A stretch of 64,000 nt of DNA from a virus (IMGVR_UViG_3300029812_000326:44871-108870); one strand, 5' to 3'. Positions 12,520 to 48,219 are shown, counted from the first letter of the stretch. A program made the numbers and translations. The notes: generated by a model from the sequence alone, not told the origin.

Positions 12520-14319
12520 ATGTTTGAAATTTATAAAATATTACTTGATAAACATCTCGAATATCCACGATGGATGGATGTGGCAAATAATCCTAGGGAT
12601 CCAATCTATCAGGCTATAGATATACATAAAAATCTACCTCTTCATATGACATCGCAGGTGCAGCCGCTGCTTGATGTATTTCATTGGAACGAACTTGAAT
12701 TCCATACTATTATTAATGAATCTGGGAATTTTTTTGGAGACGGATGGGAAATTAAAAATGTAATAGATTATTCCGATTATGAAACGGACATTCCTACGAG
12801 TTTAGAATATATATTGACATTTTCTGGAGAATTTCCTCCTGGTATCTATGAAAATTTATATTCAATTTGTTATGTGGATGATCTATCTGGATTTTTTTAT
12901 GTTGCGGGAACCAGTGGGATTTATTCTATGGACTTGACTGGTTCAATATATGAATCATACTATTATAATTCGCGCCCCGTTGAAACGAAATTGAATATAT
13001 TAAATGGGATGGCAACGTTGGATTGTTCCCCAATATTTGGTTCTTTCCATTTGTATAATATTTATAATCTTGATGCATTTGATAATGCAATTGAAATAGA
13101 TGAAGACCAATATATTTTATCGGGTAATTATATTTATATTCCAAATATTAGCGGCGTTTATTTGGCTGAATATAATTGCTGTTTATATCAGCCTCCTATA
13201 AATTTAAAAACAAAGAAAAAACCATGGTGCCATTATTCAGATAGTGGATTCTTAATATTTGGAAATTCATATGAATATGATGGCACACATATACATCTTG
13301 AAGATTGTGACATAGAATCCAGCGCGGATCGAACATTTTCTATTACTCCATTTAATTGCAGACCTTGGAAGTCATTAGAAATCTGCTATGAATATATAAG
13401 GCAATATCACATATTCTGGGATTCCTCTTCGCAATTGACAATATATCCTGTTTCGGGGGAAAATTTTTATCCGAAGCCTTCGGCATTTTCTCAAACATTA
13501 GAAAGTGATATAAATGCGTATTATTATGATGGAAAATTATATGGAGAATATGTTCCTGGAAGTTCGGCATATTATAAATTCGAAATCAGTGGCGATTATT
13601 CTGAAGAATTATTAGATATTTATCCCGTAAATGCGGGAATTTTAGATATTTTTTATTGGACACATGCCGCGATTTGTTATCCAATATCCGGACATAGTGC
13701 TTTAGAATATTCTGAATCAGGAGATATAAATGACTACGTAATGGCTGGAAATCATTATGTTCCATCTACAATTGTTGATTTTTATGGGGATTCCGAATTT
13801 AGAGAACAAATTCGATCTGCCCCCATTAGTCGATTTTCTGCGAAAAAATTCATATATTGCAAAGGTATGACTAAATATTTTGATAAAACATTTTTCTTAA
13901 CTGATGAATTGGTAATATATGATGATCATGGGAATCGTTATTATATATTGACAAAAACGCCAGAAGTATATTATATAGTTGACGGAACTGGCAATATTTA
14001 TAGTCGTTCATATATGCATTTAGAATATAATCCAGAAATTAAAGTAGTTGGATTGACATCCGTTGGGGACTACTTAGTTATTGGTTTATATTATAAAAGA
14101 TTTATATTGATTTATTATAATCCGAGGACTGGGAAAAAAATTGGTTACGAATTCCAATTTGAATTGAAAGATCCGAAAGATTTTACCATTGGATATGATC
14201 GATTATATATTTTAGACGACAATAAAATACACGAAATTAAATTGAGACATGATTATAGTATATATGTCAATAATATGACATATCTACGAGAAAATTATGA
14301 CAGAATTTGGAAAATCTGA
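12520..14319 (+). CDS. Baseplate/tail structural protein, Ser-Gly-rich, with probable beta-propeller C-terminus
   Basis: Follows Baseplate J; N-terminal 'YPRWM' shared with 15978 ('YPNWM'); about 11 SG dipeptides in the first ~410 aa. Confidence 0.55.
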   Translation: MFEIYKILLDKHLEYPRWMDVANNPRDPIYQAIDIHKNLPLHMTSQVQPLLDVFHWNELEFHTIINESGNFFGDGWEIKNVIDYSDYETDIPTSLEYILTFSGEFPPGIYENLYSICYVDDLSGFFYVAGTSGIYSMDLTGSIYESYYYNSRPVETKLNILNGMATLDCSPIFGSFHLYNIYNLDAFDNAIEIDEDQYILSGNYIYIPNISGVYLAEYNCCLYQPPINLKTKKKPWCHYSDSGFLIFGNSYEYDGTHIHLEDCDIESSADRTFSITPFNCRPWKSLEICYEYIRQYHIFWDSSSQLTIYPVSGENFYPKPSAFSQTLESDINAYYYDGKLYGEYVPGSSAYYKFEISGDYSEELLDIYPVNAGILDIFYWTHAAICYPISGHSALEYSESGDINDYVMAGNHYVPSTIVDFYGDSEFREQIRSAPISRFSAKKFIYCKGMTKYFDKTFFLTDELVIYDDHGNRYYILTKTPEVYYIVDGTGNIYSRSYMHLEYNPEIKVVGLTSVGDYLVIGLYYKRFILIYYNPRTGKKIGYEFQFELKDPKDFTIGYDRLYILDDNKIHEIKLRHDYSIYVNNMTYLRENYDRIWKI

Positions 14320-14322
14320 ATT

Positions 14323-14745
14323 ATGAGCGAATCCGTTAAAAATTTCAACTGGTATTACAACAACAATAATGGTGACTATGAATTGTCTTGGGAGCATATG
14401 TCTGAAGCCGGCGCATTATTTATTGGCATATCTGATATTCGGTTTTTGGATTTTGGGGATTGTGACAATATTGGGAATGCAATTTCCCATACATTTGGTG
14501 GCAATTTGAATGCATACTATGTTGCAATTTATAAACCAACTGCCGATGTGGCAACGAAAATTAAAATTTATCCTCCTGGATTGTTGATGCGCGGTTATCA
14601 AGATGCTACTATAGGGAAAGATAATATCTTATATATTGCAGATGGGATGGATTTATTAAAAATACAATTGTTTTTCGATTTTTGTAAAATTGTTGGTGGA
14701 AAGATATATACAAAAGAATTATATAATCGTCTGAGGATATTCTAA
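14323..14745 (+). CDS. Hypothetical structural protein
   Basis: Co-oriented within the structural operon; C-terminus resembles the end of 12520-14319 (TIGxD.LYI.D...IxL..D....Y.xExY). Confidence 0.5.
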   Translation: MSESVKNFNWYYNNNNGDYELSWEHMSEAGALFIGISDIRFLDFGDCDNIGNAISHTFGGNLNAYYVAIYKPTADVATKIKIYPPGLLMRGYQDATIGKDNILYIADGMDLLKIQLFFDFCKIVGGKIYTKELYNRLRIF

Positions 14746-14752
14746 TTTTATT

Positions 14753-15499
14753 ATGAAGATGAAAAAATGGTCTCAAAAGTATGGTGATTGTTGTATTGAA
14801 TGTGGAACTACAGAAATTCCCCATAAAGGGCATGGATTGTGTAAAAAATACTGGGAAAAAAATTATCACAAAAAATATGATATTGAACATAAAGATGCTC
14901 TGCAAAAATATAGACACAATTATTATAAACGAAACAGAAATAAAATTCTTATACGAAATAAACTTCGAGAAGCAAAAAATAAAGCTGCGCTTAAAATATA
15001 TAACAAGATATATAAAAAAAAGTATTATCAAAATAATAAAACTAAATGTGAAAAATATCGTCGAAAATATTATCAGGAACATAAAAGAAAAATCATAGAA
15101 AATACTTTGCAGTATTATAATGATAACAAGAATCAAATGGATATAAAAAGAAAAAAATACCGACAATCATTAAATGGCAAAAGTATTTGTAAAATAACCA
15201 AACGAAAGTATAGGGCCCGGAAAAAGGGTGTTGATTTTTGGACCAAAGAGATGACTATTCGTTGGTGGTGGATGTTGGACGCAACTGAGGGATATTGTCC
15301 AATGTGTGGGAATCCATTTGATAATGGGGAACATAAATTTACAATGGATCATATATTACCATTGAATTTAGTAGATAAATTAGGAAAAACTGAAGCAATT
15401 AAATTAGGCGCAATTCATCACATAGATAATGTTCAAGTATTATGCATGAAATGCAATAGCAAAAAACATACGAAAATTCCAATATCAAAAAAGCAATGA
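14753..15499 (+). CDS. HNH homing endonuclease (family A)
   Basis: KWSQKYGDCCIECG...HKGHGLC N-terminus, Lys/Tyr-rich linker, CPMC...TMDHILP...HHIDNVQVLCMKCNSKK. Confidence 0.9.
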   Translation: MKMKKWSQKYGDCCIECGTTEIPHKGHGLCKKYWEKNYHKKYDIEHKDALQKYRHNYYKRNRNKILIRNKLREAKNKAALKIYNKIYKKKYYQNNKTKCEKYRRKYYQEHKRKIIENTLQYYNDNKNQMDIKRKKYRQSLNGKSICKITKRKYRARKKGVDFWTKEMTIRWWWMLDATEGYCPMCGNPFDNGEHKFTMDHILPLNLVDKLGKTEAIKLGAIHHIDNVQVLCMKCNSKKHTKIPISKKQ

Positions 15500-15978
15500 T
15501 GAATTTTTATCATCCAAGCACTGGAAATCCCATATTTGTTTCCGGAATTGTATTCAGTGGCATAGAAGGAATAGATTGTCAAATACCAATTGATGAATTC
15601 CAATCAAGGACTTATGATGGGATGGGATCAGAATTAAATAATACGAAATATATAAATAAATATTTTGCCGAATCCAATAGATCAGTAAATAGGAAGCTAT
15701 CTGAATTTGAAACAGAATATACAACGATTAAAATTACTGGCTTAGATGGCGACGAATATATTACTGCTTATGGGGAAACTCAGATAGAGCCGCCTGGTGG
15801 AAGCGGTAATGCATTGATATATGCATTTTGCCCAGGATATGAAGAATGGTACGAATTGGATAACTGTGCTGGAAAATCTATGAAATTAGATGTTGATGCC
15901 GGAATAACTTATATAGGCTTATCTGTAAAATTAATAAAAGCCACGGATGGTCCTATAATTAATTTTTTGATTTATTAA
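15496..15978 (+). CDS. Hypothetical structural protein
   Basis: ATGA overlap with the HNH; acidic, beta-rich; VSGIVFSG. Confidence 0.5.
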   Translation: MMNFYHPSTGNPIFVSGIVFSGIEGIDCQIPIDEFQSRTYDGMGSELNNTKYINKYFAESNRSVNRKLSEFETEYTTIKITGLDGDEYITAYGETQIEPPGGSGNALIYAFCPGYEEWYELDNCAGKSMKLDVDAGITYIGLSVKLIKATDGPIINFLIY

Positions 15979-16805
15979 TGAATACGACTCTCAATATATT
16001 GCTTGAAAAATATCCCAATTGGATGAGATTGCGAAAAGTGGGAGATCCCATTCGAAGAATTTTCGAGTCTCTAGGAATTCAATTGCTTAACCTTGAAAGA
16101 GGGAATAGGCGGTCGTATTATAGCAGTTTTTTAGTCACAAGCGACGTAGATGCGGATTCCAACTATAATATGTATTATGTTCTTTCGGGAGATATTAATG
16201 AATTGAATACAATTTCTGGCTATTGTGATACCATGGACGCTACTGGTGAAATAAATCTTATAAAATTAAATGAAGACGAAACTGAAAATTATTATCCAAC
16301 TCGCGGATTCGCAATAGAAAAGATTTCACTGCCAGCATCCGGATATGTCACTGGACTTTGCTATCTGGACGAAATTGTATCGGGCGAGTTATTAATTAGC
16401 TATGACCAATGCTATTCGATATATTCTTTGGATGAAAATTATAATTCTTCAAATGGTATTTCGTATTGTTTAGCCACGGCTGATTTTTACTTAGAATTTG
16501 AACCACTTTCTGGAGATTTATATAGGGCTGATTTATTTCATAAACCATTAACTTATGAATTCAAGGATATATATGACGAAGATGTTCCAATTAGTGGTAT
16601 TTTCGTAGAAGATCAATATGCATTTGCTTTTGAAAATAATTTACAAAATTTTGGTAGAATTTTAGCTCACATGACATATGAATTATGCGCATGTCCTTAT
16701 CGAATTAAAACTGATATGTATCGGTGGCAGTATTTTTATGAATCAGAAATGCCAGATATATTGTTGGCTAATTATGTAGTGCTTTCGGGATCGGAATTAT
16801 GCTAA
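15978..16805 (+). CDS. Baseplate/tail structural protein, Ser-Gly-rich; N-terminus paralogous to 12520
   Basis: ILLEKYPNWM versus ILLDKHLEYPRWM; 7 SG in 275 aa. Confidence 0.55.
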   Translation: MNTTLNILLEKYPNWMRLRKVGDPIRRIFESLGIQLLNLERGNRRSYYSSFLVTSDVDADSNYNMYYVLSGDINELNTISGYCDTMDATGEINLIKLNEDETENYYPTRGFAIEKISLPASGYVTGLCYLDEIVSGELLISYDQCYSIYSLDENYNSSNGISYCLATADFYLEFEPLSGDLYRADLFHKPLTYEFKDIYDEDVPISGIFVEDQYAFAFENNLQNFGRILAHMTYELCACPYRIKTDMYRWQYFYESEMPDILLANYVVLSGSELC

Positions 16806-16849
16806 GAATATACGCTTCAAATAAATTAAATAAAAAAATGAGATAAATT

Positions 16850-17821
16850 ATGTTAGAAAGCGGCGTGTATTTAACGTGGAATAGGATATCATTTGAATTT
16901 TCAAATACCATTTCGGGGGATTACGTTTATTTGAAATGTGATCCATATGATGTCTTGCCGGGAGAAGTTACAAAAGTGGAATTTGATTATCAAACATTCC
17001 ACTGTGAGCAACATATTGGCGATGAGGTTCATATTTTTGCTGATAATCTTCTCGAAGATTCCGTAAGATGTTTTATTCCAAATCCAAATGACAATAATCC
17101 GATTTTTTATCAACCCAGCCTTAATTTTGTATATGATTCTGATGTTTCCGGATCGATTCCACTATATCCAATTGAATTTTCTGGGAATTATTATCCAGAT
17201 GATATGTATTTATATTTGCCATGTGCTGATACATATTACATTACATATTATACCCAAGATTCCAAAACGTATTATCCCAGAGGGAAGCCGTCACATAAAA
17301 TGTGGCCGGATGTTGATTATACTTGGAATGCAGATTATGAACTAAGGAATGGAATTGTATGTCCATCAACGGTTTTGACTTTATGTGATCCAGACAAACA
17401 TATAAATCGGGCGCTCACTTCAAGTCCGCAAAGTGCATTTACGGTCTATCAGCAAATTTATTTCTGCGGATCCGCATTTGATATTAGAAATAGTAAATTC
17501 TTATTTATTAATCATAAAGGCTTTTTGGCAAGCGAGAGCGGAGAAAAATGGTACGTCAGGTATCCGGAAGAAAGGACAAAAACGGCTATTTTGAATCCTC
17601 AATCCAAACAAACAATAAATGGAAACGCCGCGGAGCTTAAAGAATTGCAGTGCTTTGAACCAAATTGGGATATCACTTTCCGGAGCATGGTTAATTATCA
17701 AAATTATATTTTATTGATTGGCGATTACGATGGAAAATTATTTTTATTCATATTGGACCCGGTCCGGCTCCCGAAAATTATTAAGCACATAGAAATCAAC
17801 AACTTAGATGATGTTATATAA
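16850..17821 (+). CDS. Baseplate/tail structural protein
   Basis: Operon context; acidic and aromatic composition; 5 SG in 323 aa. Confidence 0.5.
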   Translation: MLESGVYLTWNRISFEFSNTISGDYVYLKCDPYDVLPGEVTKVEFDYQTFHCEQHIGDEVHIFADNLLEDSVRCFIPNPNDNNPIFYQPSLNFVYDSDVSGSIPLYPIEFSGNYYPDDMYLYLPCADTYYITYYTQDSKTYYPRGKPSHKMWPDVDYTWNADYELRNGIVCPSTVLTLCDPDKHINRALTSSPQSAFTVYQQIYFCGSAFDIRNSKFLFINHKGFLASESGEKWYVRYPEERTKTAILNPQSKQTINGNAAELKELQCFEPNWDITFRSMVNYQNYILLIGDYDGKLFLFILDPVRLPKIIKHIEINNLDDVI

Positions 17822-17850
17822 AACGAAATTTGGTTGGGGAAAATTGGGAT

Positions 17851-17863
17851 TTGAACTATAACA
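17851..17863 (+). promoter_or_regulatory. Copy 2 of TTGAACTATAACA
   Basis: Shares 16 nt (TTGAACTATAACAATA) with the 3163 copy; intergenic. Confidence 0.6.
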
Positions 17864-17872
17864 ATAGCGAAA

Positions 17873-18064
17873 ATGCAAGAAATCAATACTATGAAGAAAT
17901 GGTCTAAAAAATATGATTGTTGCCAAAAATGTGGAGAATATGTTGGAATTAATAAACTTACGATGGATCATATAATTCCTATTTCGAAAGGCGGAATTCA
18001 TCATATAAATAACGTTCAGCCTTTGTGTATGCATTGTAATTCAATAAAGCATAATTCAATTTAA
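17873..18064 (+). CDS. Minimal (internally deleted) family-A HNH endonuclease
   Basis: KKWSKKYDCCQKCG joined directly to KLTMDHIIP...HHINNVQPLCMHCNSIKH. Confidence 0.75.
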   Translation: MQEINTMKKWSKKYDCCQKCGEYVGINKLTMDHIIPISKGGIHHINNVQPLCMHCNSIKHNSI

Positions 18065-19746
18065 TGGTTACTGAAATAAAACAATTCATTCGTGTACCGA
18101 TCTGGAATTCTTTCGACGAATTCGGTCTTCTTTTAGGCTTAGAGCGTTTGCCCGGAGAAACTAATCGGGAATTCAGGCTCAGAATCTATAATGCGGGCAA
18201 ATATTTTGGATCTGCAACGAAGCAAGGATTGGTTAACGCACTAAGTATTGAACTTGGATGTTGCCAATATAATGCAACTAATAAAACATTTTTCTTTCTT
18301 TCATATCAACCAGTGCTTCGTGATCCTGGAACTAATGATCAGCTTTCATTTAGAGTTTGGGTGAACAATGAAGAATGGCAAAATTTTGATCTTCATCCTG
18401 ATGCCGAAAATTATTTTAAATTATGGAAATTGGAAAATGGGGCAACAACCCGAATATTAGAAATTAGTGACACATTCAATAATGGCGAACCATTAAAAAT
18501 CATCTATTATAGAATTGAAGATAATGAACCGGAAAGATGGGTTGATGAATATGAATATCCGAATGAAAGATTTATGGCATATAAGAAGGAAACTCCAGTT
18601 TCTGGGCAAATTGAATTCTTTGAATTAAATGATCCCGATTTTAAAAATGAATATCTTTTGGATGGGGACGGAAATCCAAAGCAAATTTATAAATCTTTTG
18701 TTGAAGAAATTCATCGGATTTATCCAATATTATGGAATAAATTCATTTGGGATTACACCGCATTTGATTGTGGTGATGAAAAGATAACTGGACTCGAACA
18801 TTTGCCATCAAGATTTGATGCATCGAGAACATATATAACATCTGGAGATTTTATTTCCGGAGTAGGATATGGAACTGATTGTGCAGTCCATGATGGCATT
18901 ACACATATTAATTATGAGCAAAAAGTTTTAATTCATCCTGGATATTTTACGTTGTGTGATTACGAATTTTATTTATTTGGACATAAATGTAGAGAACTGC
19001 CCCCTGCCAGTGGAAGCGTTGAATTATTTGAATTTAATGATCCAATAATCATAACTAATATATCTGGACAATGTTATTGGGACGATAATTTTGCTGAACC
19101 TTGGACTGATTATAATATTGATACTCACTATTTGCACGTTCAAGATTTGTCAGGATGCATCAGCGGCGATTGGGATCCCAATGTGTGGGATGTGCCTTGG
19201 TTTACAATCGATAATTCTGGGGCTATTGAAATAAGTGGAGAAAAACCATACGAAGAACATTATATTGAATATGGGTGCTTGAGTGGAAATTATGAATGTG
19301 ACATTGATTTTAATCCTTGCCATTTTGCAAATTTTACTGATAATTTTCTTGTAATTAGATTGGGACCGTTGGTCCCTGATACAATTGAAGTAACCTATGT
19401 TGATTGGTACATAAAGCGAAAATCTAACGAATATGATGCAAATACTAGTGGATGCTATCCAGATAATGATATTACTATCAGAGTTGATATATATGATAAA
19501 TGGAGAGCCCCAATCAATGATCCATCTTATTCGGCAGAATTTTCTATATATTATAATGAACTGGAAATTGCCAGCGCCATTGAAAATTTATCAGATGATG
19601 GAAGTTGTTGGCATACATTTCACGATTTAACAGAACGAAATTTAGTGGATCCTCATGATTTCTTGGTAACTGTGACATTATTGAAAGATGTAATTGCTAC
19701 AAATCTTAAGGGATATTTAACTATTCCATTTGGAATTGAGGCATAA
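18064..19746 (+). CDS. Baseplate wedge-type protein, Ser-Gly-rich
   Basis: FDEFGLLLGLERLPGETNREFRLRI resembles the baseplate wedge motif D..G...GL.R..GE.D...R.RI; about 11 SG. Confidence 0.65.
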   Translation: MVTEIKQFIRVPIWNSFDEFGLLLGLERLPGETNREFRLRIYNAGKYFGSATKQGLVNALSIELGCCQYNATNKTFFFLSYQPVLRDPGTNDQLSFRVWVNNEEWQNFDLHPDAENYFKLWKLENGATTRILEISDTFNNGEPLKIIYYRIEDNEPERWVDEYEYPNERFMAYKKETPVSGQIEFFELNDPDFKNEYLLDGDGNPKQIYKSFVEEIHRIYPILWNKFIWDYTAFDCGDEKITGLEHLPSRFDASRTYITSGDFISGVGYGTDCAVHDGITHINYEQKVLIHPGYFTLCDYEFYLFGHKCRELPPASGSVELFEFNDPIIITNISGQCYWDDNFAEPWTDYNIDTHYLHVQDLSGCISGDWDPNVWDVPWFTIDNSGAIEISGEKPYEEHYIEYGCLSGNYECDIDFNPCHFANFTDNFLVIRLGPLVPDTIEVTYVDWYIKRKSNEYDANTSGCYPDNDITIRVDIYDKWRAPINDPSYSAEFSIYYNELEIASAIENLSDDGSCWHTFHDLTERNLVDPHDFLVTVTLLKDVIATNLKGYLTIPFGIEA

Positions 19747-20892
19747 ATGCCAAATAGTTGTTCGTTAATCACCGTTCAAGAAAAAGTTGAGAGAAAGTGC
19801 ATGGTTCCATTGGCATTTGTCTCTGGGGGCGAAGCAGTTCCTGGAACGGCTTCATTCGGAATGGATCATTCCAATGAAATATTTCAAAATGTTTCAGAAA
19901 AAACTGGATTTTTTACTCTCGAAGCCATATTAGGGCAATATATGGAATTGCCGTATGATCAATATGGAGATCTACTGGGCAAAAATTATCTCAATATGTT
20001 TATATTTACTCCATATTCCATATTTGAAGGAATAGAATATTCCGATGAATATAACAAAATGATGCTTCCATATAAGTATGAACTGCGGTATGATCATTTG
20101 GCTCGGAGTAAAAGTCCGGCCGCCCATATTCGCATTTTCGATCATAACGGCAAGGAAATACCAAAAGAATACTACATGATTTTAGTATTTGGTTCTCAAC
20201 ATTTTTCAATATTGCCGGGTTCATTGGATCCGCGAGCTTATGGTCCATTTATAACAGAAAAATCCCAAGTTGATTGTGCCAAGGCGCGAGCATGTCAAGG
20301 CAAAAATATTTGGGGTGAAGATTGGAGCACAAGTTTATATAGAGAGCGCAGACTTTGGGAATATGCACATCCGGAACTTGAAAGACCTCCCATAAGCGGA
20401 AATTTTCCTGTGGATGAAACTGAAGGTTATTGGAATAGAACGGATGATGGCCGCTATTCTGAAGAGGAATTTGAAAACATGTATGTTTCCGAAGATGGCT
20501 ATTGGGGACAAACCTTGTCTGGAGGACACGTTATATATGATGATATATATGATCGTGGACCAGCAATTTTTCCCGGTCTTTCGGGCCAGATTGGATATTT
20601 AACTTCATACAAATATCTTAGTGGAGATGATTACTACGAAGATAGTACACCATATCGGGTAGTTTTGCTATTACCAGAATTTTTGTGTTTCCAAGATGGT
20701 TTGACCATATGGGTTGAATATAATAAATTTGTAAAATATAATGATGATGAAGAATTTATTGAATTTTTTCATCCAGGATATAGAGAAATTGTCAATCCGG
20801 AATTAATTATTAAGCATGGTGTGGATTATACTTTTGCAATTGTTGATGGAAAACTAAGTGTTGTTTGGATTAATACAGATTTTATAATATAA
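19747..20892 (+). CDS. Structural protein (baseplate/tail)
   Basis: Abuts the previous gene (TAA-ATG); 5 SG. Confidence 0.5.
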   Translation: MPNSCSLITVQEKVERKCMVPLAFVSGGEAVPGTASFGMDHSNEIFQNVSEKTGFFTLEAILGQYMELPYDQYGDLLGKNYLNMFIFTPYSIFEGIEYSDEYNKMMLPYKYELRYDHLARSKSPAAHIRIFDHNGKEIPKEYYMILVFGSQHFSILPGSLDPRAYGPFITEKSQVDCAKARACQGKNIWGEDWSTSLYRERRLWEYAHPELERPPISGNFPVDETEGYWNRTDDGRYSEEEFENMYVSEDGYWGQTLSGGHVIYDDIYDRGPAIFPGLSGQIGYLTSYKYLSGDDYYEDSTPYRVVLLLPEFLCFQDGLTIWVEYNKFVKYNDDEEFIEFFHPGYREIVNPELIIKHGVDYTFAIVDGKLSVVWINTDFII

Positions 20893-23719: not shown

Positions 23720-24355
23720 ATGATATATTATCCGCGCGAAAATTTATACAGATTTTGGATTATTGAAGATGATCTGGTTGAAAGATCTTCGGTTATCAAT
23801 GTTCGGAAACTTAATGCGAAAACTGGTGACATTTCTAATGTTGGAGAAGATGAACTTTTGGTTGGAGACGAATCCGTTGCCAGTATCGTTAAACGCAAAT
23901 TGTCCATTGTTGATGTTCGTAATCGTCCAGAATTAATAGATCCGAAAACTGCAATATATAAACAGCCAGAAGTTGATTATTATACGGATATTGGCTATGC
24001 AGATGGATTGCCATATCAAGGCGATGCAGTCATAATTATTAATATTCCATTCTCCAAATTGAAACAATTGGCAAAAAAAATTCATGATCAGTCATATAAT
24101 TCATTGGGCATCAATTCTGATATTCAACATATTATATATGAAAATTATTCACAGGAATTTGGTGACTGTGGAATATCGAATATTTTGGAATTGAAAGAAC
24201 TTTATGCTTGGGATGATACTGACATGGATGATGTTAATAAATATATGGATTTTATAAATAATTGCTATGAAGACGCTAAAGCATTGGTTAAAAAAATTAT
24301 AAAAAAATATTTAGCCTTTGGAATTTTACCTATTGTACAATATATCAATACATGA
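23720..24355 (+). CDS. Structural protein
   Basis: DIGYADGLPYQG and C-terminal IKKYLAFGILP; operon context. Confidence 0.5.
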   Translation: MIYYPRENLYRFWIIEDDLVERSSVINVRKLNAKTGDISNVGEDELLVGDESVASIVKRKLSIVDVRNRPELIDPKTAIYKQPEVDYYTDIGYADGLPYQGDAVIIINIPFSKLKQLAKKIHDQSYNSLGINSDIQHIIYENYSQEFGDCGISNILELKELYAWDDTDMDDVNKYMDFINNCYEDAKALVKKIIKKYLAFGILPIVQYINT

Positions 24356-32408: not shown

Positions 32409-32411
32409 ATT

Positions 32412-32687
32412 ATGATCAACAAATTTCGATATAGCAGAAGAATTTTTCGTTCGAATTATCCACTGTCTTCAAGAACGTGGGGAGCAATATTAGAAGAAAT
32501 ACAATCAATTTTTTGTCAATATTTCGGAAATACGATAAATAAAGAAAAAATTGCAACTGGAATTGTTGGCGAATTAATTGATGAATTATCAACGTTCTAT
32601 ACTGAGACATGGGGGAATTCTGACGAAACAAATGCGAATTTTATGAATTTATTGACAAATATAAAACATTCATTGTCGAAGAAATAA
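32412..32687 (+). CDS. Small structural protein
   Basis: FRSNYPLSSRTWGAILEEI resembles FRGPLSSELLNRAFEEI of the next gene. Confidence 0.5.
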   Translation: MINKFRYSRRIFRSNYPLSSRTWGAILEEIQSIFCQYFGNTINKEKIATGIVGELIDELSTFYTETWGNSDETNANFMNLLTNIKHSLSKK

Positions 32688-32703
32688 ACGTTGGAGGTGA
32701 GAA

Positions 32704-38816: not shown

Positions 38817-40127
38817 ATGTCTAATCCAATTATGCCAAGTAGTGGTGGAGAATCGAAAGACAAAACTCCTCCAATAATTGGTGGAGATGAATGTGAACAA
38901 GGATCTACTTGTGATGTAGATACCACACCTCCAGTTATATCTCCTCCTTCTTGTGGATGGGGGGTTGCTGGAGCCCGAGGGTATCCAGGATTGCCAGGAC
39001 CGCAAGGTCCACAAGGAGAGCAAGGAATTCCTGGGATCAGTGGTGAACCCGGGGAAGCTGGACTTCAAGGAGATCCTGGTATGAGCGGTGAACCGGGAGA
39101 GCAAGGCCCACAGGGACCAGAAGGCCCAGAAGGCCCAGAGGGGCCTCCAGGATCAGGAGGATGGCAGACTTTAGATGATATTTGCGCGGTTGGAAATGAA
39201 ACAGATTATGATATTCATACATCTGGGGATTTGATTGTAGACCATTCGGGAATGTTTGGGAAAGATATATTTCTTAATTGGGATGGACCAGATGATGATA
39301 GTTATTTATATTTTTATGACGGAGCATCTCCTACTGGGCGACATTTAAAATGGAACAATGCGTCCAGTAGATTTGAATTTAATGAAGATGTCCGTTGTGC
39401 AGAATTAGAGGGCGGGAAAAATATTCATATAAATATCTATCATAATGATGTTGACGCAGTCATGCATTTTTATAAACCCGGTGCAGGATATGAATTTTTT
39501 AAATGGGATAAAACTAATAATAAATTTGTTCTTAGTGATAAAATAGAAATCGGCGGAAATACAACTGTTTTGGGGAGTATTTATGGACATTCAAATATTG
39601 TGGCTTATGGAGATTTATTAGTTAATTATGATTATGGAGATGTCGATGCGCAAATAAGATTTTTCAAATCCGATTCAAACGAAGAATATCTTAAATGGAA
39701 TAAAACCCACAATTGGTTTGAATTCTCAGATGATCTCCATGTGGGCGGCGGAATATCTGGTTCTTTCTTTATAATAGGGGATCTTGCACTTCCTGGTAGT
39801 CCAGTTGAAGGAACTATAGCATATGATTCAACTTCTGGGGAATTCTTCGGATGGGATGGGAGTGTATGGGATCCATTTAGTGGTGAAGTTGGAATAAGTG
39901 GAGAGCCTGGACAACAGGGAATATCAGGAGAACCGGGAGAACAAGGATCTCCAGGAGATATCAGTCAAGCAACTTTAGATTTCGTATGTGATAATTCGAA
40001 TGAAACAGATCAGGATATTCACACATCGGGAGATTTGATTGCAGATGAAACTCTCGAAGCCAGAAGAATTGAATTGAATAAAAATATGAATTACGAAGAC
40101 GTTGTTATTTATTTTTACTTTCCCTAA
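38817..40127 (+). CDS. Tail fibre, part 1 (collagen-like segments plus beta repeats)
   Basis: Gly-X-Y runs; TLDxxC..xNETxxDIHTSG repeats; FY...E..KW...FEFSDD repeats; ends mid-repeat (VIYFYFP*). Confidence 0.75.
38961..39152 (+). repeat. Collagen-like Gly-X-Y repeat (~21 triplets); second run at 39882-39956 (~8 triplets)
   Basis: [30 protein letters not shown]...[13 protein letters not shown]. Confidence 0.9.
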
Positions 40128-40715: not shown

Positions 40716-41249
40716 TTGAGTTTCACTACATTTAAATACAGCGTTGCTCGAGGTCGGTTTGAATTCACGGCTCCAGCTCAGATTTCAGGAGAATTATATG
40801 TTGATGGCTCTGGAATGTTCGAAGATGATATTTATTTACATTATAAGGGTCCAGATGGAGATCAATATATATTCTTCTATGATGATAGTGCGCCTGATAA
40901 CGAATGGCTGAAATGGGACGAAGCGGATGATCGTTTTGAATTCAGCAATGATCTTTATGTCGAAGGTGCTGGACTCATTTCAGAAATATCCGGACATGCA
41001 TATGCTGCTGAAGGCGATACATTGGATGTTGTATGCGGCAGAGGGCATGAAACGCAATATGATATCCATAGTTCTGGAACGATTACCGCCGATGTAGATC
41101 TGGATGCTGGAGTGGACGTGAATGCCGGCGGTGATATAAATGCTGGTGCGGATGTGACTGCAGGTGGAGATGCAAAAATCGATGGAAATGTCCATGTCAA
41201 TTTTGATGCAGGTGCCGGCGATCCAACGGTTTTCTTTTATTATTCCTGA
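40716..41249 (+). CDS. Tail fibre, part 2 (begins and ends mid-repeat)
   Basis: AGGAGGTG RBS with TTG start; begins MSFTTFKY...RFEF and ends PTVFFYYS*; one TLDVVC...DIHSSG repeat. Confidence 0.75.
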   Translation: MSFTTFKYSVARGRFEFTAPAQISGELYVDGSGMFEDDIYLHYKGPDGDQYIFFYDDSAPDNEWLKWDEADDRFEFSNDLYVEGAGLISEISGHAYAAEGDTLDVVCGRGHETQYDIHSSGTITADVDLDAGVDVNAGGDINAGADVTAGGDAKIDGNVHVNFDAGAGDPTVFFYYS

Positions 41250-41298: not shown

Positions 41299-41400
41299 AT
41301 GTTTGAATATTTTAAATGGTCTAGGAAATTTGATTGTTGTATTGAATATGGAACCGTAGAAAGACCGTATTATGCTAAAGGATTTGGAGCGATAAAATGA
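41299..41400 (+). pseudogene. N-terminal fossil of a family-A HNH (33-aa mini-ORF)
   Basis: GGAGG RBS; MFEYFKWSRKFDCCIEYGTVERPYYAKGFGAIK*, compared with KWSQKYGDCCIECGTTEIPHKGHG; ATGA overlap with 41397. Confidence 0.75.
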
Positions 41401-43070
41401 GTTTGGAATATCTGAAATTTAACATTTCTAATGACAGATTTGAATTCAGTGATGATATACATATTTCTGGATGCGGATCTTTCTGTGAATTATCTGGGTC
41501 TTACTATGGATTATCTGGAGATTATATCTCTCATCGTGATGATACATCTAATCCTCACGAAGTAACATTTGATCAAGCCAGAGATCAACAGGGAGGCTCT
41601 GACGTAACATTGGCAGAACTTGAAGAATTGACCGATGGCTCTGTAACTGTATTGCATGCTCATGCTGGCGGCGGAGCAGATACTTTGGATAATGTTTGTG
41701 ATCGGGGAAATGAGACAAACCAAGATATACATAGCTCGGGCACGGTGTATGCTGATCGTTCCCTAATGACCGATGGTGATGTAGAAATCGCCGATGATTT
41801 GAATGTTGGTGATGATGCATCCATATCGGGCGATTTACATGTTGTGGGCACTTTCTATACGGATGGTGAAATTCATGCTGGTAATTCTATTTTTGCGACA
41901 GGCGATTTAAAAGCAACTAATAATCTTTATTTAAATAGCAATAATGATAATCAAGATGCTGTTGTTCATTTTTACAAACCCACTGCAGGCGAAGAAACTC
42001 TGAGATGGGATAAAACAGATCTTCGTTTTGAATTTAGTGATGATTTACAAGTTCAAGGCAAATTATTAGTTGATAATTCAGGAACATTTGAAACGGGATT
42101 ATTTTCAAAAGATGATGTTTATTTTTCTCGCGATCTTTACATTGAAGAGGATATTCTCTGTGAATGGGATGCTTATATAAAAAGTTTAATTCTTAATAAA
42201 AACTTTCACAATACTACTGCGCAAATTATTTTCAGAAAACCTACTTCTGGATTTGAATCTTTAACATGGAATAAAGGTACAAATAGATTTTTATTGAGTA
42301 ATGATTTACAAATTCAAGGTGATCTTTATATAGATGAATCCGGAACATTCGGCGATCAAGTAGTAGTTGACGCATCAGGAATTTATTATGAAGCGAATGA
42401 TCAACATACTCACATATCTGATTTCCTTGCTGGATTGCCTGGGCTTATGTTTAATACATCATCGGAGAAGTGGCAATATTGTAATGATGGCTCTACTTGG
42501 GCGGATATTGGGAGTGGTGGTGCCGGTGCTGGAAGCATACTTCTTCCTGTTGAAGGCGCCGCTCTTGGTGATGGAACAGTTGGTTCAGCTGCGCCGGCTC
42601 TAAGTCTTGTTACAACTTCGGATGCCGATGATCCTCAGTGCAGAACATTTTGCCTACGATTTGATGCCAGCACGGATGAACATTGCTTCTGGCAATTCCG
42701 ACTACCTGCTGATTATAGTTCTGGCGGAAGACTTAAAGTTCAATTTTATAATGTTAGTGCTCAATTAAATGATATAAAAACTGCACAATTTGAAGGATGT
42801 CTCCAAGCTGTAACTCCTGGTGATGCAACAATTATGACTGCTCTTGATCTGACAACGGATGGTGGTGGTTGGGTTGGAACACTTAAGACCTTGACATCGG
42901 GCACAACAGCTGGAAGATTATATGAATCATCTATTGATATGGCTTCCAATCTCGATGGAATGGTTGCTGGAGATTTTATACAATTTGGATTAAGAAGAGA
43001 TGTTAGTGATGACGATGCTACAGGAGATATGGCAGTGATTGCAGTAACATTCGAATATAACTATGCATAA
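41397..43070 (+). CDS. Tail fibre, part 3 (distal; C-terminal beta-sandwich head)
   Basis: Begins MSLEYLKFNISNDRFEFSDD (second half of the repeat); H..DTSNPHEVT knot motif; further repeats; about 12 SG. Confidence 0.75.
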   Translation: MSLEYLKFNISNDRFEFSDDIHISGCGSFCELSGSYYGLSGDYISHRDDTSNPHEVTFDQARDQQGGSDVTLAELEELTDGSVTVLHAHAGGGADTLDNVCDRGNETNQDIHSSGTVYADRSLMTDGDVEIADDLNVGDDASISGDLHVVGTFYTDGEIHAGNSIFATGDLKATNNLYLNSNNDNQDAVVHFYKPTAGEETLRWDKTDLRFEFSDDLQVQGKLLVDNSGTFETGLFSKDDVYFSRDLYIEEDILCEWDAYIKSLILNKNFHNTTAQIIFRKPTSGFESLTWNKGTNRFLLSNDLQIQGDLYIDESGTFGDQVVVDASGIYYEANDQHTHISDFLAGLPGLMFNTSSEKWQYCNDGSTWADIGSGGAGAGSILLPVEGAALGDGTVGSAAPALSLVTTSDADDPQCRTFCLRFDASTDEHCFWQFRLPADYSSGGRLKVQFYNVSAQLNDIKTAQFEGCLQAVTPGDATIMTALDLTTDGGGWVGTLKTLTSGTTAGRLYESSIDMASNLDGMVAGDFIQFGLRRDVSDDDATGDMAVIAVTFEYNYA

Positions 43071-43097
43071 ACAATGGCTATTTGAATAGGAAAATCT

Positions 43098-43784: not shown

Positions 43785-43787
43785 AAT

Positions 43788-44354
43788 ATGATTGATCATA
43801 TTGTAGGCATAGATGAAGTTGGAAGAGGCTGTTTAGCCGGTCCAGTCGTTGCATGTGCAATTATGACCAACTATTCTGCAATTCCCCTATGTTGTCGGGA
43901 TTCTAAGAAATTTACTGAAACCCGCAGGAAATTCGTGGCCCGCATATGTCTTCCCTACGTAAATAAAATAGCATTTGGAACGATTTCAAATGAAATTATA
44001 GATGAATTTGGCATTAAAAATGCTACGAAGTTAGCTATGACCAGAGCATATGAAAAACTTAATCCCAATCATGATATTGTATACATCGATGGCATAGATG
44101 GAATAGGAATCAAAGATGAAATTGTTGTGCCTCATGGAGATGACCTAATTCCCTGGATATCATTGGCTTCCATATATGGCAAAATCTATAGAGATTTCAT
44201 AATGATTCAGTATTCTGAGATGGAAGAATACAAAATGTACAATTTGGATAGGAACAAAGGCTATCTTACGCATGAGCACAAAGTGGCGATTGATAGGTAC
44301 GGATTGTCGAATATTCACCGACAATCATTCAGTTGGGAGAATTCTTGGAAATAA
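43788..44354 (+). CDS. rnhB: Ribonuclease HII
   Basis: GIDEVGRGCLAGPVV, DSKK, IDG, GD...ISLASIYGK.YRD, NKGY.T..H and HRQSF motifs. Confidence 0.92.
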   Translation: MIDHIVGIDEVGRGCLAGPVVACAIMTNYSAIPLCCRDSKKFTETRRKFVARICLPYVNKIAFGTISNEIIDEFGIKNATKLAMTRAYEKLNPNHDIVYIDGIDGIGIKDEIVVPHGDDLIPWISLASIYGKIYRDFIMIQYSEMEEYKMYNLDRNKGYLTHEHKVAIDRYGLSNIHRQSFSWENSWK

Positions 44355-44437: not shown

Positions 44438-44464
44438 TGGCATCCTATGCCATGTATTTTTTAA
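44438..44464 (+). terminator. Possible weak terminator between the convergent modules
   Basis: TGGCAT-CCT-ATGCCA hairpin followed by TGTATTTTTT. Confidence 0.3.
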
Positions 44465-44509
44465 TGCTTTAATATCACAATTTTAATTACTTTGTAGTCA
44501 TATAAAAAT

Positions 44510-45577
44510 TCAATCCGATTCATAATACGAGCTCCGCGGGGATTTGACCAATAATTCATTAAAAAATTTGATGAATTCAACGGCAATTTTTTCTGGGGAA
44601 TATTTTTTTGCATATTGAATCATTTTTTGTTGCACGGTTTGAGATTTTTCTTTATCATGAAAAAGTTCAATTAATAATTGATGTAAATTATTTACATTTT
44701 GATATTTAATTACTTCATCGGAAAATAAATGGAAAAAATCCGATCCATCTGGTACCAATATTGGACATCCCGCTCCAATTATTTGAAATGCTGTAGATGA
44801 AACAACGCCATAATCTTTTTTTATGAATTTATGCAATACAATAGCATCTGAAGCGGATATGTAATCATCAAATCTTCGATGAGACAATATTTCTTGTCGA
44901 ATAATCATCCAGGATGACATATTTGATTTTTCAAAAAATTTCTTATCAGGTGAAGCAAGAATAAGCAAAATTGATTCATCTTTCAAATTATCGGATAAAT
45001 ATCGAAGATATAGTTCATATCCTCTTTGACAAAATGAAAGAATTATCCGTTTATCTTGAGGCAAATTTAATTTTTTCCTGGCATCTTGTTTATTTCTTTT
45101 TCTTATTGGAAAACAAGGAAAAGGAATTAATTGAGCATTTGAATAAATTTTCTTTAGAAATTCCTGACGTTCAGTAAAATATATTACGCCATCCCAAAGG
45201 AATTGATAAAAATTAGGATTATTTGGCAGTTGATTTTCATGAACAATTTGAATTATAATTTTGCTACGTCTATAAATATTGGGAATAATTTTTATTAATT
45301 TTTCCATTGGAAATATCATAATATCTTGAATTATGAAAACATCGAATTCTTGAGATAAAATGGGTGCTGGATCAAGAAAATTGGTTTGTTGGGTGCCTAT
45401 GCAACGGATTACATAATTTTCATCTTTGTTAGTAATATGGGTACCATGAAAATCATTTTTAATAAAGGTAAAGATGGTAAGTTCATGCCCCATTTCAATC
45501 CAGCTTTTTCCAATTGATTCTGCATGAATAGCAACTCCGCTATCTGTGTTCCAAGCGGACAGCATGCCTATTTTCAT
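44510..45577 (-). CDS. GT-B fold (GT4-like) glycosyltransferase
   Basis: MKIGMLSAWNTDSGVA.H...GHEL; IVHE; IPFP...ARKKLNLP; YISASDAIVL...SS......GAGCPILV. Confidence 0.85.
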   Translation of the reverse strand: MKIGMLSAWNTDSGVAIHAESIGKSWIEMGHELTIFTFIKNDFHGTHITNKDENYVIRCIGTQQTNFLDPAPILSQEFDVFIIQDIMIFPMEKLIKIIPNIYRRSKIIIQIVHENQLPNNPNFYQFLWDGVIYFTERQEFLKKIYSNAQLIPFPCFPIRKRNKQDARKKLNLPQDKRIILSFCQRGYELYLRYLSDNLKDESILLILASPDKKFFEKSNMSSWMIIRQEILSHRRFDDYISASDAIVLHKFIKKDYGVVSSTAFQIIGAGCPILVPDGSDFFHLFSDEVIKYQNVNNLHQLLIELFHDKEKSQTVQQKMIQYAKKYSPEKIAVEFIKFFNELLVKSPRSSYYESD

Positions 45578-45589
45578 CTGTTTCGCCTT

Positions 45590-45910
45590 TTACTTTTGAT
45601 GTAATATTAATCGCCGTTTTAACCAAGATATTACGGCGCTTCTGAAGCTTCTCAATATCTTTTTCTCATTAGTATGTTTTTTATCAGATTCAATAAGAAC
45701 TTTTTTCATAATATTTTCAAGATCTAAACTGATATCTCGGGACGAACAGTAATCAAGCATTACAGAAATATCAATGCATTCTTCTTCAAGTTGCCTTATG
45801 AATAATGTAGTATCGGCGCTTGTATCTGGGAGCATTCCGCCAAGGAGTCTGACATATTTATGAATGTATTCGTTATATTTTAAGATTGGCTCGCCCGCTT
45901 CTTTACACAT
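45590..45910 (-). CDS. Hypothetical protein between the glycosyltransferases
   Basis: 106-aa ORF, co-oriented, overlapping the upstream GT stop. Confidence 0.5.
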   Translation of the reverse strand: MCKEAGEPILKYNEYIHKYVRLLGGMLPDTSADTTLFIRQLEEECIDISVMLDYCSSRDISLDLENIMKKVLIESDKKHTNEKKILRSFRSAVISWLKRRLILHQK

Positions 45911-48219
45911 TCTTCGTGTGCTTTTTTATAGATCTCTGAATATTTCCGTCCTAAAATTTTCCAAGATCTAGTTTTTTGATATTCTTTAACTTTATCCAAT
46001 TCTTTATTGTAAATTTGTTGGTTTTCGTATAATTTTGTTATCTCTTCTGCCAAAGCTATAGAATTAAAATTACCATGAGGGAAATTCTTAACATCATAAA
46101 ATGCTGGTGAACTGCTTGTTATTATTGGAGTTCCTGCGCCCAGACATGTGCATGCTGCGCCAGAAACTCCTTGACATTTCATAATGGCATACATAAATAA
46201 ACCAATATGAGATCTGGCACATAATTCTGATACTTCTTGATCAGATAGGAAATTTTCGATAAGTTTTACATTTGTATTCTTTGACATTGATCTTATATGT
46301 TCCAAATATTTTTGTTGCGTTCCCGATTTATCTCCTGGATGAACTGAAGTTTGAAGAATAATTTCATGTGGGAATTTTAAATATTTATCGCAATCAACGA
46401 CCAATTCAAATCCTTTTGATGGATGAGCAAATCCTGAGCTAATGATTGTGAACTTGGAAAATCTTTCTTTGTCAGATTTATATGAATCGCAACCATGTGG
46501 GATCACCATCACCTTCTTTCTAAATGAAGGCCATTGTTCTAATATATCGGCAAAGAATTGATTATGCACAATTGGAATAGAGTGTTTAGACCATTCTATT
46601 ATCTCTTCAAAATATTGGATATTTTGGCTGTCAGTTGAAGTTGGACATGTGTGATGAGTAATAAAAATCGGTATTCCCATATCGTGCATTGCAGATATAA
46701 ATGCTCTAAATCTAGGTTTATTCGCCCAATATAATGCCCATTCATTCTGGATGTGAATTACATTGATTCCTTCTTTTCGAATTATTTCATACGTATTTAT
46801 AAGTTCGCTGGGATTTTTGGACCAACATGGAATGGCTTTAAGTGTACTCTGTTCTTTTGGATCCATTGTATCAGCCGCTAATATGATAGGATTAGGTTCG
46901 ACGTGTTGATATGAATTTCTACTATAGCGTGCGATTCCACATCGCTCATTCCATGTTGTCATCACTCCGACCTTAAGTTCTTCAGGAACTTTGTATTTGG
47001 GGAATTTTTTCTTTTCAAGAATCATAGGAGAAACAAAGGCAGTATTTTTCGAAGTATCAATTTGTTCTAAAAATTCATCCCAACGTTCATATTGTTTTTC
47101 CCAAGTATGATTTTTGGCGAATTCAATTCCACTCTTTGAATACTGGTTTCTCAATTTTTCATTTTTGTATAATTTATATAATTTTTTCGCAGCATATTGG
47201 ACATCGGGTATTTGCATCAATTGTCCTGTTATTATCTCGGGATACTTCGCTTTAACCTTGACAGGTTCACCAAATTGATATGCATATTCTTTAAACGAAT
47301 TAGCATTTGTAAATACCATTGGCACACCACATGCTGCACTTTCTAAAGCAGTGATACCGAATCCTTCTCGTGAAGACAGCAAAATTTGAACGTCGGCAGC
47401 ATTATAGATTAAATTTACCTGTTCGGGCGTAATACCATGACCAACTTTAAGATTTGATAATACAGCTTTATCGTTTAAATCATATCGATTAACAAATTCT
47501 TTCAAATCATATCCGCGAGCTTCGTGGAAATTACAATGAAAATATATTTTTGAGTTTGGAATATTTGCCAATTTGAATGCTTCCATTGCTCCACATGGGT
47601 TTTTTCTCATCCCATTTCGACTGATAAATAACACAACAAATGCATTTTCGTCACCAACCAATTGTTTTTTGAGTTGTTTCTTCGTTATTTCGCCCAATGG
47701 CTTAAATATATCTGGTTCATATCCCGGATAGATTACGGTTTTCACCAGATCATGACCACAAAGTTTTCGAATTTCGTCTTTACAGAATTTTGTTTGACCA
47801 ACAACGTGATTGAATTCTTCCATTGTTCGAATCCAATCAATAGTTTCGAATGGGGTTCGCATTATTTTGGGAGATCCTTCACTATCTATTGGACTATACC
47901 ATATTGATTGAAATGAATTTCTCCCTTTGAATTTTGAAATATAATAAACCATCCAAAGATCTCCAGTTGTCCACACAATATCAGGTCTGAATTCTTCAAT
48001 CACTTTTGGAAACAGTTTAAGACCCCATTTATCTCTTTGATCGGTGGCATTATAAACCTTAAATGGCATTTTTTCCATGTCTCCTCGGGCCCACCAACCC
48101 ATGTATTGAATCTCATGTCCTTGTTCATGCCAATGAGTAGCTAGATGTCGTCCAATGGTACCATATCCACTGGTGAGCTGTGGTGCGTCTGTTATCATTA
48201 AAATTTTATGTTTTTTCAT
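45880..48219 (-). CDS. Double GT-B (GT4-like) glycosyltransferase with two tandem modules
   Basis: Module 1: ITDAPQLTSGYG...RKN...YNAADV...SSREGFGITALESAACGVP. Module 2: VGVMTTWNERCGIARYS...HIQNE...IPHG...GFAHPSKG...SGA...LGAGTPII. Confidence 0.9.
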   Translation of the reverse strand: MKKHKILMITDAPQLTSGYGTIGRHLATHWHEQGHEIQYMGWWARGDMEKMPFKVYNATDQRDKWGLKLFPKVIEEFRPDIVWTTGDLWMVYYISKFKGRNSFQSIWYSPIDSEGSPKIMRTPFETIDWIRTMEEFNHVVGQTKFCKDEIRKLCGHDLVKTVIYPGYEPDIFKPLGEITKKQLKKQLVGDENAFVVLFISRNGMRKNPCGAMEAFKLANIPNSKIYFHCNFHEARGYDLKEFVNRYDLNDKAVLSNLKVGHGITPEQVNLIYNAADVQILLSSREGFGITALESAACGVPMVFTNANSFKEYAYQFGEPVKVKAKYPEIITGQLMQIPDVQYAAKKLYKLYKNEKLRNQYSKSGIEFAKNHTWEKQYERWDEFLEQIDTSKNTAFVSPMILEKKKFPKYKVPEELKVGVMTTWNERCGIARYSRNSYQHVEPNPIILAADTMDPKEQSTLKAIPCWSKNPSELINTYEIIRKEGINVIHIQNEWALYWANKPRFRAFISAMHDMGIPIFITHHTCPTSTDSQNIQYFEEIIEWSKHSIPIVHNQFFADILEQWPSFRKKVMVIPHGCDSYKSDKERFSKFTIISSGFAHPSKGFELVVDCDKYLKFPHEIILQTSVHPGDKSGTQQKYLEHIRSMSKNTNVKLIENFLSDQEVSELCARSHIGLFMYAIMKCQGVSGAACTCLGAGTPIITSSSPAFYDVKNFPHGNFNSIALAEEITKLYENQQIYNKELDKVKEYQKTRSWKILGRKYSEIYKKAHEECVKKRASQS

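Follow-up and report, generated by a model that had tools for sequence, protein, structure and literature searches.

Ser-Gly enrichment in the distal-tail proteins of a virus that encodes a two-module GT4 glycosyltransferase

Distal-tail genes and their Ser-Gly content

To examine an unusual dipeptide in viral structural proteins, we analyzed a 64,000-nucleotide stretch of DNA (IMGVR_UViG_3300029812_000326:44871-108870; the window), which forms the right-hand end of an IMG/VR virus record of 108,870 bases that comes from an uncultured large phage and is 53% complete by CheckV. The window has a guanine-cytosine (GC) content of about 33%. Long plus-strand structural genes extend up to about 44.4 kb and are followed by a minus-strand replication block that contains a DnaB/primase fusion, a sigma-70-like protein, a PD-(D/E)XK nuclease and PolB. 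The dipeptide is Ser-Gly (SG), which an earlier note on this DNA had counted by hand and regarded as the acceptor site of a virion O-glycosylation system served by neighbouring glycosyltransferase (GT) genes. Proteins are named below by the first coordinate of their genes. The genes from 12520 to 20892 sit where myoviruses encode the baseplate periphery, as judged from the family matches of the block. These are the Baseplate J / gp6-like wedge protein at 11266..12510 on the plus strand (PF04865, 75.5 bits; phrog_6), the hub, a 2044-amino acid (aa) open reading frame (ORF) with a peptidase M15 domain and with matches to 'endolysin' PHROGs of giant tail hubs, and the 43098 product, a Laminin_G_3 domain protein.

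The number of SG expected in each protein was taken from 2000 composition-preserving shuffles, from which the p-values were also derived. Four plus-strand genes of the baseplate periphery showed a 4- to 6-fold excess (p <=0.001), namely the 599-aa protein at 12520..14319 (11 SG against 2.8 expected, p 0.0005, all 11 within residues 68-400), the 275-aa protein at 15978..16805 (7 against 1.2, p 0.001), the 323-aa protein at 16850..17821 (5 against 0.95, p 0.001) and the 560-aa virion protein at 18064..19746 (11 against 1.75, p 0.0005), which matches phrog_21059 on residues 11-74. The 381-aa protein at 19747..20892, on the same strand, has a weak excess (5 against 2.0, p 0.03). Three fibre genes further along the plus strand are also enriched, with about 2.3- to 2.5-fold excess (p <0.005) in the 436-aa collagen-like protein at 38817..40127 (12 against 5.4, p 0.0045; PF01391 in two stretches, 51.2 bits with a cut-off of 27.2) and the 557-aa protein at 41397..43070 (12 against 4.7, p 0.0015), and a marginal excess, as in 19747, in the 177-aa fibre segment at 40716..41249 (4 against 1.4, p 0.04). 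The Baseplate J protein is not enriched (2 against 1.8). Every one of the earlier hand counts was exact on recount, the excess that they implied holds once composition is preserved, and the RNA polymerase (RNAP), hub, primase-helicase and PolB, against which the enriched proteins had been set, carry SG at expectation.

When the five baseplate-peripheral proteins (12520, 15978, 16850, 18064 and 19747) were pooled, 39 SG were found against 8.7 expected, with a z-score of 10.9; the next-ranked dipeptide in the pool reached a z of 3.2, and GS, TG, NG and DG were not enriched. Indeed, 30% of all Gly residues in these proteins directly follow a Ser. The remaining 86 ORFs of the genome gave a z of 2.2, and no SG excess was seen among the ORFs at genome positions 1-44870, which make up the side of the capsid and tail tube, except for one at genome positions 21567-22484, outside the window (11 SG in 305 aa), which is a paralog of the fibre proteins 38817, 40716 and 41397. 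The flanks of the dipeptide follow a pattern, as had been noted earlier from a handful of examples. Over 37 sites, position -2 is Pro in 8 (1.9 expected), position -1 is aliphatic in 25 (68%; 8.3 expected), position +2 is Asp, Glu, Asn or Gln in 21 (8.5 expected), and position +3 is aromatic or aliphatic in 27 (14.3 expected). The combined motif [ILVMF]-S-G-[DENQ]-[FYWILVM] occurs 13 times in the five proteins, compared to 0.21 in the shuffles, none of which out of 2000 gave more than 3; the remaining 16,225 aa of the window contain it a single time. The mixed usage of Ser codons described before goes further than was stated, with all six Ser codons and likewise all four Gly codons used at these sites, and the excess is therefore a signal at the protein level. 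This signal is confined to distal-tail proteins and is retained by relatives of the virus.

Two further proteins of the structural block are not enriched. The 696-aa product of 20903-22993, which lies among the SG-rich genes and has short matches to baseplate-wedge and tail-fibre PHROGs, has 3 SG against 3.8 expected. The 891-aa virion protein at 24352-27027 has 5 against 3.4, and its orthologs in two related contigs described below have 10 against 3.4 (L003:16811-19486) and 9 against 4.9 (L017:11409-14051).

The SG-rich proteins had been considered to represent unrelated folds, which is correct for only part of the set. The 18064 protein has no detectable relation to 12520 by hhalign. On the other hand, 16850 aligns with residues 267-450 of 12520 (hhalign probability 96%), 15978 gives a weak hhalign match to the 12520 N-terminus (E-value 1e-3), and the two, which are adjacent ORFs in the window and in the related contigs L002 and L003, form a single 612-aa ORF in the contig L017 (L017:4957-6795). 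15978 and 16850 are therefore the N-terminal and C-terminal pieces of a split paralog of 12520. The fibres are also paralogs, as 40716 matches both 38817 and 41397 by BLASTP (E-values 1e-15 to 1e-17). About half of the 12 SG in 38817 fall in collagen Gly-X-Y runs (G-I/M-S-G-E-P) and others in a shared D-I-H-x-S-G unit, while 41397 carries a repeated D-x-S-G-x-[FLY] unit, internal and paralogous repeats and a weak bactofilin-like match, and probably folds as a beta-helix. The independent SG-rich sets are thus the 12520 family, 18064, weakly 19747, and the fibre family.

Searches in Pfam and PHROGs gave no match for 12520, 15978, 16850 and 19747, profile and fragment searches in the PDB for the fold of the SG-rich proteins gave none either, and no model was found in the ESM Atlas. 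Homologs of 12520 comprise only 3 representatives among 1.8 billion proteins; at 24-30% identity they are SG-rich too and share several SG columns. In 18064, the N-terminal domain is common to distant jumbo phages and the clade-specific middle region carries the 11 SG, one of which, S265-G266, is invariant in 11 sequences, including distant relatives without a GT. AlphaFold2 models are of low confidence, with a predicted local distance difference test score (pLDDT) of 30.8 for 12520 and 44.2 for 18064 and with the SG-rich part below 50. Residues 401-599 of 12520 are the best part of a poor model and are predicted to be beta-rich; they contain no SG, and their turns use H-G, T-G and D-G. The SG habit is domain-specific even inside this one protein.

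Glycosyltransferase genes next to the structural block

The plus-strand structural unit ends with RNase HII (43788-44354, PF01351) and is closed by a terminator-like hairpin at 44438..44452 on the plus strand. Beyond these lie the GT genes, which are convergent with the structural strand and co-oriented with the primase-helicase. The larger one, at 45880..48219 on the minus strand, encodes a 779-aa two-module GT4 protein. Its module 1 is canonical, with PF00534 (65.9 bits, cut-off 26.4) and PF13439 (49.4 bits, cut-off 28.5) both above their gathering scores and a match to phrog_2170 (E-value 5e-37). Module 2 matches only the N-terminal GT4 domain and is without both Glu residues of the E-x7-E motif, its corresponding region reading V-S-G-A-A-C-T-C-L-G-A-G-T-P; it has no match in the PDB by sequence. 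The smaller gene, at 44510..45577 on the minus strand, encodes a 355-aa GT-B-like protein (Glyco_trans_1_2, PF13524, 26 bits), which resembles module 2 at the motif level and also has no Glu at the motif positions (V-S-S-T-A-F-Q-I-I-G-A-G-C-P). PF00534 matches neither module 2 nor the 355-aa protein. A 106-aa ORF at 45590..45910 on the minus strand overlaps the end of the 779-aa GT gene and has no family match.

Only two of the three modules are conserved in close relatives. In the contigs L014 and L018, homologs of the 779-aa GT are 83-85% identical and the 106-aa ORF, conserved together with it, is 69-75% identical, and more distant two-module homologs, at 39-44% identity, are P0012-P0016. 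The 355-aa GT has no match in L014 and L018, in which the neighbouring genes are 69-85% identical, and its slot in L018 is occupied by a member of a family of small Cys-rich ORFs that is present in several copies. The 355-aa GT is an accessory, dispensable gene. The view that three GT4-like modules directly follow the structural module thus needs to be qualified in both of its parts: module 1 is a canonical GT4, but module 2 and the 355-aa protein lack E-x7-E, and the GT genes, although adjacent to the structural block, are encoded with the replication genes on the other strand and are separated from the block by the hairpin.

A GT-family profile run against all PDB sequences retrieved 18 GT4-type chains at an E-value of <=0.01. 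The best solved relative of module 1 is the chlorovirus protein B736L (3oy2, E-value 5e-14), followed by BshA and other GT4 enzymes. The 779-aa GT is far below the NCBIfam cut-offs of the O-glycosyltransferases GtfA (TIGR02918, 16.6 against 574.6) and SdgA (NF047880, 28.1 against 800). The acceptor of a GT4 enzyme is not readable from its sequence. No thymidylate-synthase-like, DNA hydroxymethylase or TET/JBP gene was found in the 53%-complete genome record or in the metagenome-assembled genome (MAG) that includes L018. An ORF at 61897-62442, just upstream of PolB and on the same strand, carries PF07659 (DUF1599, 'nucleotide modification associated domain 1'), which hints at DNA base modification as an alternative acceptor for the GTs.

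The small Cys-rich ORFs contain 5-7% Cys, share 35-43% mutual identity and are found at 3594-3935, 54224-54682 and 55848-56366 of the window, at genome positions 4-531 and at L018:13494-13940. We considered a role for Cys cross-linking in the SG-rich proteins and rejected it, as their Cys content of 1.3-2.5% is unexceptional for the genome. A second pair of ORFs, at 14753-15499 and 29314-29877, is 40% identical. L018 (CAYOFL010000006.1), a 55.6-kb contig with replication genes and GT 73-86% identical to those of the window, is binned in a MAG of an uncultured member of the Ignavibacteria, which is a weak hint at the host group; no homolog of 18064 was found among 285 genomes of the phylum of this MAG.

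The motif and the glycosyltransferases in related phages

In L002, which is 81-89% identical to the window, 41 of the 42 SG of these proteins are retained and a few are added, several of them through Thr/Ser exchange. L003, 58% identical in 18064, shows the same SG excess. These two contigs keep the excess, and both end before the GT position. The metagenome contig L017 (19.7 kb, 50% GC) has its genes in the order of the window; its Baseplate J is 55% identical and its other proteins are 26-41% identical. SG counts per protein in L017 are 11 against 3.7 expected, 11 against 3.9, 7 against 3.05 and 9 against 4.9, and the flanks resemble those in the window, with position -1 aliphatic in 22, position +2 acidic in 20 and position +3 aromatic in 18 of 47 sites. 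Site by site, at 27-37% identity, 16 of the 46 SG of the window are kept. The Gly of these sites is kept in 29 of 46 (63%), equal to other Gly residues, and the Ser in 18 of 46 (39%), compared to 24% for other Ser residues (Fisher p 0.06). Where the Gly is retained, the Ser is swapped for Thr, Gly, Asp, Pro, Ala or Glu. The SG total of each protein nonetheless stays similar, because new SG sites arise elsewhere.

Further from the window, the phages can be divided by whether they encode a GT. The complete jumbo relatives G003-G006 (239-264 kb) share only the N-terminal domain of 18064. Their equivalent baseplate block shows no SG excess, and their genomes gave no match to PF00534, PF00535 or PF13524 in searches for which the window genome served as positive control. 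Over the whole genome of G003, an excess of about two-fold appears only in the fibre cluster and stems from a repeated G-S-G-S-G-L-D-A-D unit with different flanks; in this GT-free 264-kb phage, giant fibre proteins of up to 2447 aa (G003:C1:237892-263987) carry the many-fold repeat G-N-D-G-S-G-S-G-L-D-A-D. In a more distant lineage by Baseplate J (30% identical; GC 44%), represented by G292 and G293, two SG-enriched proteins directly follow Baseplate J (11 against 4.0 and 15 against 5.4), with contexts that include V-S-G-D-I, I-S-G-D-W and T-S-G-D-F. This lineage encodes two GT4 proteins, of which a 484-aa GT of G292 matches module 1 (E-value 2e-28). This distribution fits the anticipated co-occurrence of SG excess with homologs of the GTs, with both present in G292 and G293 and, as regards the baseplate block, neither in G003-G006. 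As the window phage is more closely related to G292 than to G003, however, a single ancestral gain of both would explain it as well.

Other phages served as reference. In phage T4, SG is not in excess in gp6-gp12, in gp34-gp37 or in the other structural proteins tested, and the idea that SG excess is a general property of myovirus baseplates and fibres was thus ruled out. In Synechococcus phage S-CBS4, one of the cultured phages with the best module 1 matches, GT genes are clustered within the structural module but SG is not in general excess. This rules out the proposal that a GT4 close to the structural genes of a phage always goes with such an excess. The top phage match of module 1 is in a cultured phage, Tetrasphaera phage TJE1 (NC_019930). 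In this genome, positions 5388-10731, upstream of the terminase, hold a cluster of a nucleotidyl transferase, a nucleotide-sugar epimerase, methyltransferases and a GT, and three baseplate-region ORFs at 30112-33495 carry 7 SG against 2.7 expected, 4 against 1.3 and 6 against 2.7, a mild enrichment when combined (17 against 6.7).

Possible roles of the motif and comparison with known systems

We favour a structural reading, to which we assign about an even chance: the aliphatic-Ser-Gly-(Asp/Glu/Asn)-aromatic motif would mark tight turns or beta-bulges between short aromatic-rich beta-strands, in clade-specific outer-baseplate domains (the 12520 family including 15978 and 16850, 18064, and weakly 19747) and in fibre repeats. 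The Gly would provide the backbone geometry of the turn, the residues at -1 and +3 would pack inward, and the Ser hydroxyl and the following acidic side chain would face the solvent and cap the turn. The excess would then be the product of many hairpins per domain and paralogy, and in the fibres also of collagen Gly-X-Y runs and one repeated unit, and the products of the neighbouring GT4 genes would have a different acceptor. Both the turn geometry and the exposure of the Ser are inferred. In 12520, SG are spaced 9-10 residues apart between strand-like aromatic stretches (for example positions 123, 132 and, as TG, 141, or 201 and 211), and in the models SG lie 1-2 residues before predicted strands, although these models are of low confidence (pLDDT 31 and 44). 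The flank pattern can be read as in, out, Gly, out, in, which would fit a turn. The behaviour of the two residues, with Gly as the constrained partner and Ser exchangeable with turn-forming residues, also appears to fit, as would the invariance of S265-G266 in GT-free relatives. Paralogy, with three of the five baseplate proteins in one family and with collagen-repeat fibres, may likewise be counted for the turn, as may the location of the GTs in the minus-strand replication block, the dispensability of one of them and the lack of excess in S-CBS4.

Several observations weigh against a turn as the whole explanation. Ser before Gly is 4.5-fold over expectation when NG, DG and TG are at expectation; the same flanked motif is found in proteins without detectable homology (12520 and 18064, and a 721-aa protein of G292); sites turn over but SG numbers are maintained, at 27-37% identity and with GC between 33% and 50%; the beta-rich C-terminal 200 aa of 12520 have no SG; T4 baseplate and fibre proteins show no excess; and the confidence of the two models is too low to support a geometry. 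The preference for Ser, the reuse in non-homologous proteins, the turnover and the absence from T4 are what a turn-located sequon would produce. It is possible, though we consider it doubtful, that the exposed turn Ser is the acceptor for cytoplasmic O-glycosylation by the 779-aa two-module GT4, possibly helped by the 106-aa ORF. The substrates of this enzyme would then be distal-tail proteins that are folded or still folding, recognised by a strand-turn-strand element and not by a linear peptide, and the 355-aa GT would be an optional extender. The two readings are compatible, their sole difference being the modification of the exposed Ser. Glycosylation would explain why the motif is specific for Ser, limited to the distal tail, present in non-homologous proteins and held at constant density by turnover, and an exposed hydroxyl is what the flank pattern would lead one to expect. 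No SG excess is found in T4, in which the GTs have DNA as their acceptor, the testable lineages with the excess (window, G292 and G293) encode GT4, and four complete relatives without GT2, GT4 or PF13524 show none in the baseplate block. The conserved two-module GT4 gene adjoins the structural block, its product is of the soluble type, no DNA hydroxymethylase or TET gene is present in the 53%-complete record, the best solved relative is a chlorovirus GT, and TJE1, the top phage match of module 1, is mildly enriched in three baseplate-region ORFs. Precedents exist in TibC/AAH (PMC4358343), in chloroviruses (PMC7019647) and in mycobacteriophages (as cited in PMC12619734). However, the co-occurrence fits a single event of ancestry, the GT is encoded among the replication genes of the opposite strand, sugar-nucleotide genes were not found, and the acceptor of a GT4 cannot be read from its sequence. 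Ser can be replaced by residues without a hydroxyl, with Gly the partner that is kept, and S265-G266 of 18064 is invariant in phages that have no GT. Moreover, the distal-tail protein 20903-22993 is not enriched (3 against 3.8), S-CBS4 has GTs in its structural module and no excess, the fibres of GT-free G003 are two-fold enriched through their G-S-G-S-G-L-D-A-D repeat, and the capsid and tail-tube side, the seat of known phage glycosylation, has no excess. The complete proposal, in which this clade O-glycosylates its outer baseplate and fibres in the cytoplasm at a dedicated aliphatic-Ser-Gly-acidic-aromatic beta-turn sequon by means of a fused two-module GT4, should accordingly be regarded as tentative and on the unlikely side.

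The restriction to one sub-assembly, the occurrence in non-homologous proteins and the upkeep by turnover would be expected as well if the motif were another kind of recognition or modification site, such as a docking site for a chaperone or partner subunit, a repeated ligand-binding turn or a non-glycan modification of Ser, and the fixed acidic and aromatic residues after Gly exceed what a turn needs. As no candidate enzyme or chaperone was found, the neighbouring small ORFs have no family matches and the idea is unspecific, we regard it as improbable. It is least probable of all, and in our view very improbable, that the excess is a mere by-product of composition, DNA-level repeats or paralogy. 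Paralogy and collagen runs do inflate the counts, but shuffles that keep the composition still give a z of about 11, Ser and Gly are encoded by all of their six and four codons, L017 has the excess at 50% GC, a 4- to 6-fold excess is found inside single non-repetitive proteins, and 18064 is unrelated to 12520. Of the individual sources of such an artefact, composition was ruled out by the per-protein shuffles, and a DNA repeat or codon effect by the codon diversity together with the persistence at 50% GC.

Should the motif have a structural role only, it provides a short and very strong sequence signature for an unmodelled fold family, located at the periphery of the baseplate in large phages of an unstudied clade. 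Such a signature would be useful for annotation and for domain parsing here, where AlphaFold fails and at most a handful of homologs are found among billions of proteins. A modified Ser, on the other hand, would make this the first glycosylation system of the sequon type in the host-recognition apparatus of a phage, with bearing on receptor binding, on shielding from proteases and antibodies and on phage engineering, and it would provide an acceptor for phage GT4 genes, which are usually annotated without function.

Known systems resemble the proposed one to different degrees. The analogy to the xylosylation of animal proteoglycans, drawn earlier from a Ser-Gly followed by an acidic residue, is superficial: the proteoglycan site is acidic-G-S-G-acidic, while in the window position -1 is aliphatic in 25 and acidic in 4 of the 37 sites and position +3 is aromatic or aliphatic. 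The animal enzyme is of a different GT family and works inside the secretory pathway. GtfA/GtfB and SdgA/SdgB are closer, as these GT4 O-GlcNAc transferases modify Ser in the cytoplasm. GtfA has a non-catalytic GT-B protein as its partner, a pairing that resembles the canonical module 1 and the module 2 without E-x7-E. The acceptors of GtfA and SdgA, however, are low-complexity Ser-rich or Ser-Asp repeats, whereas here they would be isolated turns.

Mycobacteriophage virions are glycosylated by phage-encoded GTs (Freeman et al. 2023, cited in PMC12619734), and the likeness would lie in phage GTs that decorate the virion proteins of their own phage. In the mycobacteriophages, as cited there, the glycans are at the C-termini of capsid and tail-tube subunits, while the candidate sites here are internal turns in baseplate and fibre proteins and the GT is located in the replication block. 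Chloroviruses glycosylate their capsid proteins at non-canonical sites by their own cytoplasmic multi-domain GTs (PMC7019647). The proposed likeness is that of virus-encoded soluble multi-domain GTs acting on structural proteins, with B736L as the nearest solved relative of module 1, though this similarity covers only the generic nucleotide-sugar-binding half, and the chlorovirus glycans are N-linked, on a capsid protein and in a eukaryotic virus. TibC and AAH act in the cytoplasm and heptosylate many Ser on the inter-strand loops of a folded beta-helix, in TibA and AIDA-I (PMC4358343). The system proposed here would share with them a GT-B-like cytoplasmic enzyme, many Ser on inter-strand loops and recognition of a structural element instead of a linear sequon. 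TibC is, however, an iron-binding dodecameric heptosyltransferase, and it is not among the PDB matches of the GT-family profile at an E-value of <=0.01, whereas the window encodes a generic two-module GT4 and the acceptors would be phage baseplate proteins. If glycosylation holds true, the system would be to phages what hyperglycosylation is to autotransporters, with the host-recognition apparatus as its target in place of the capsid.

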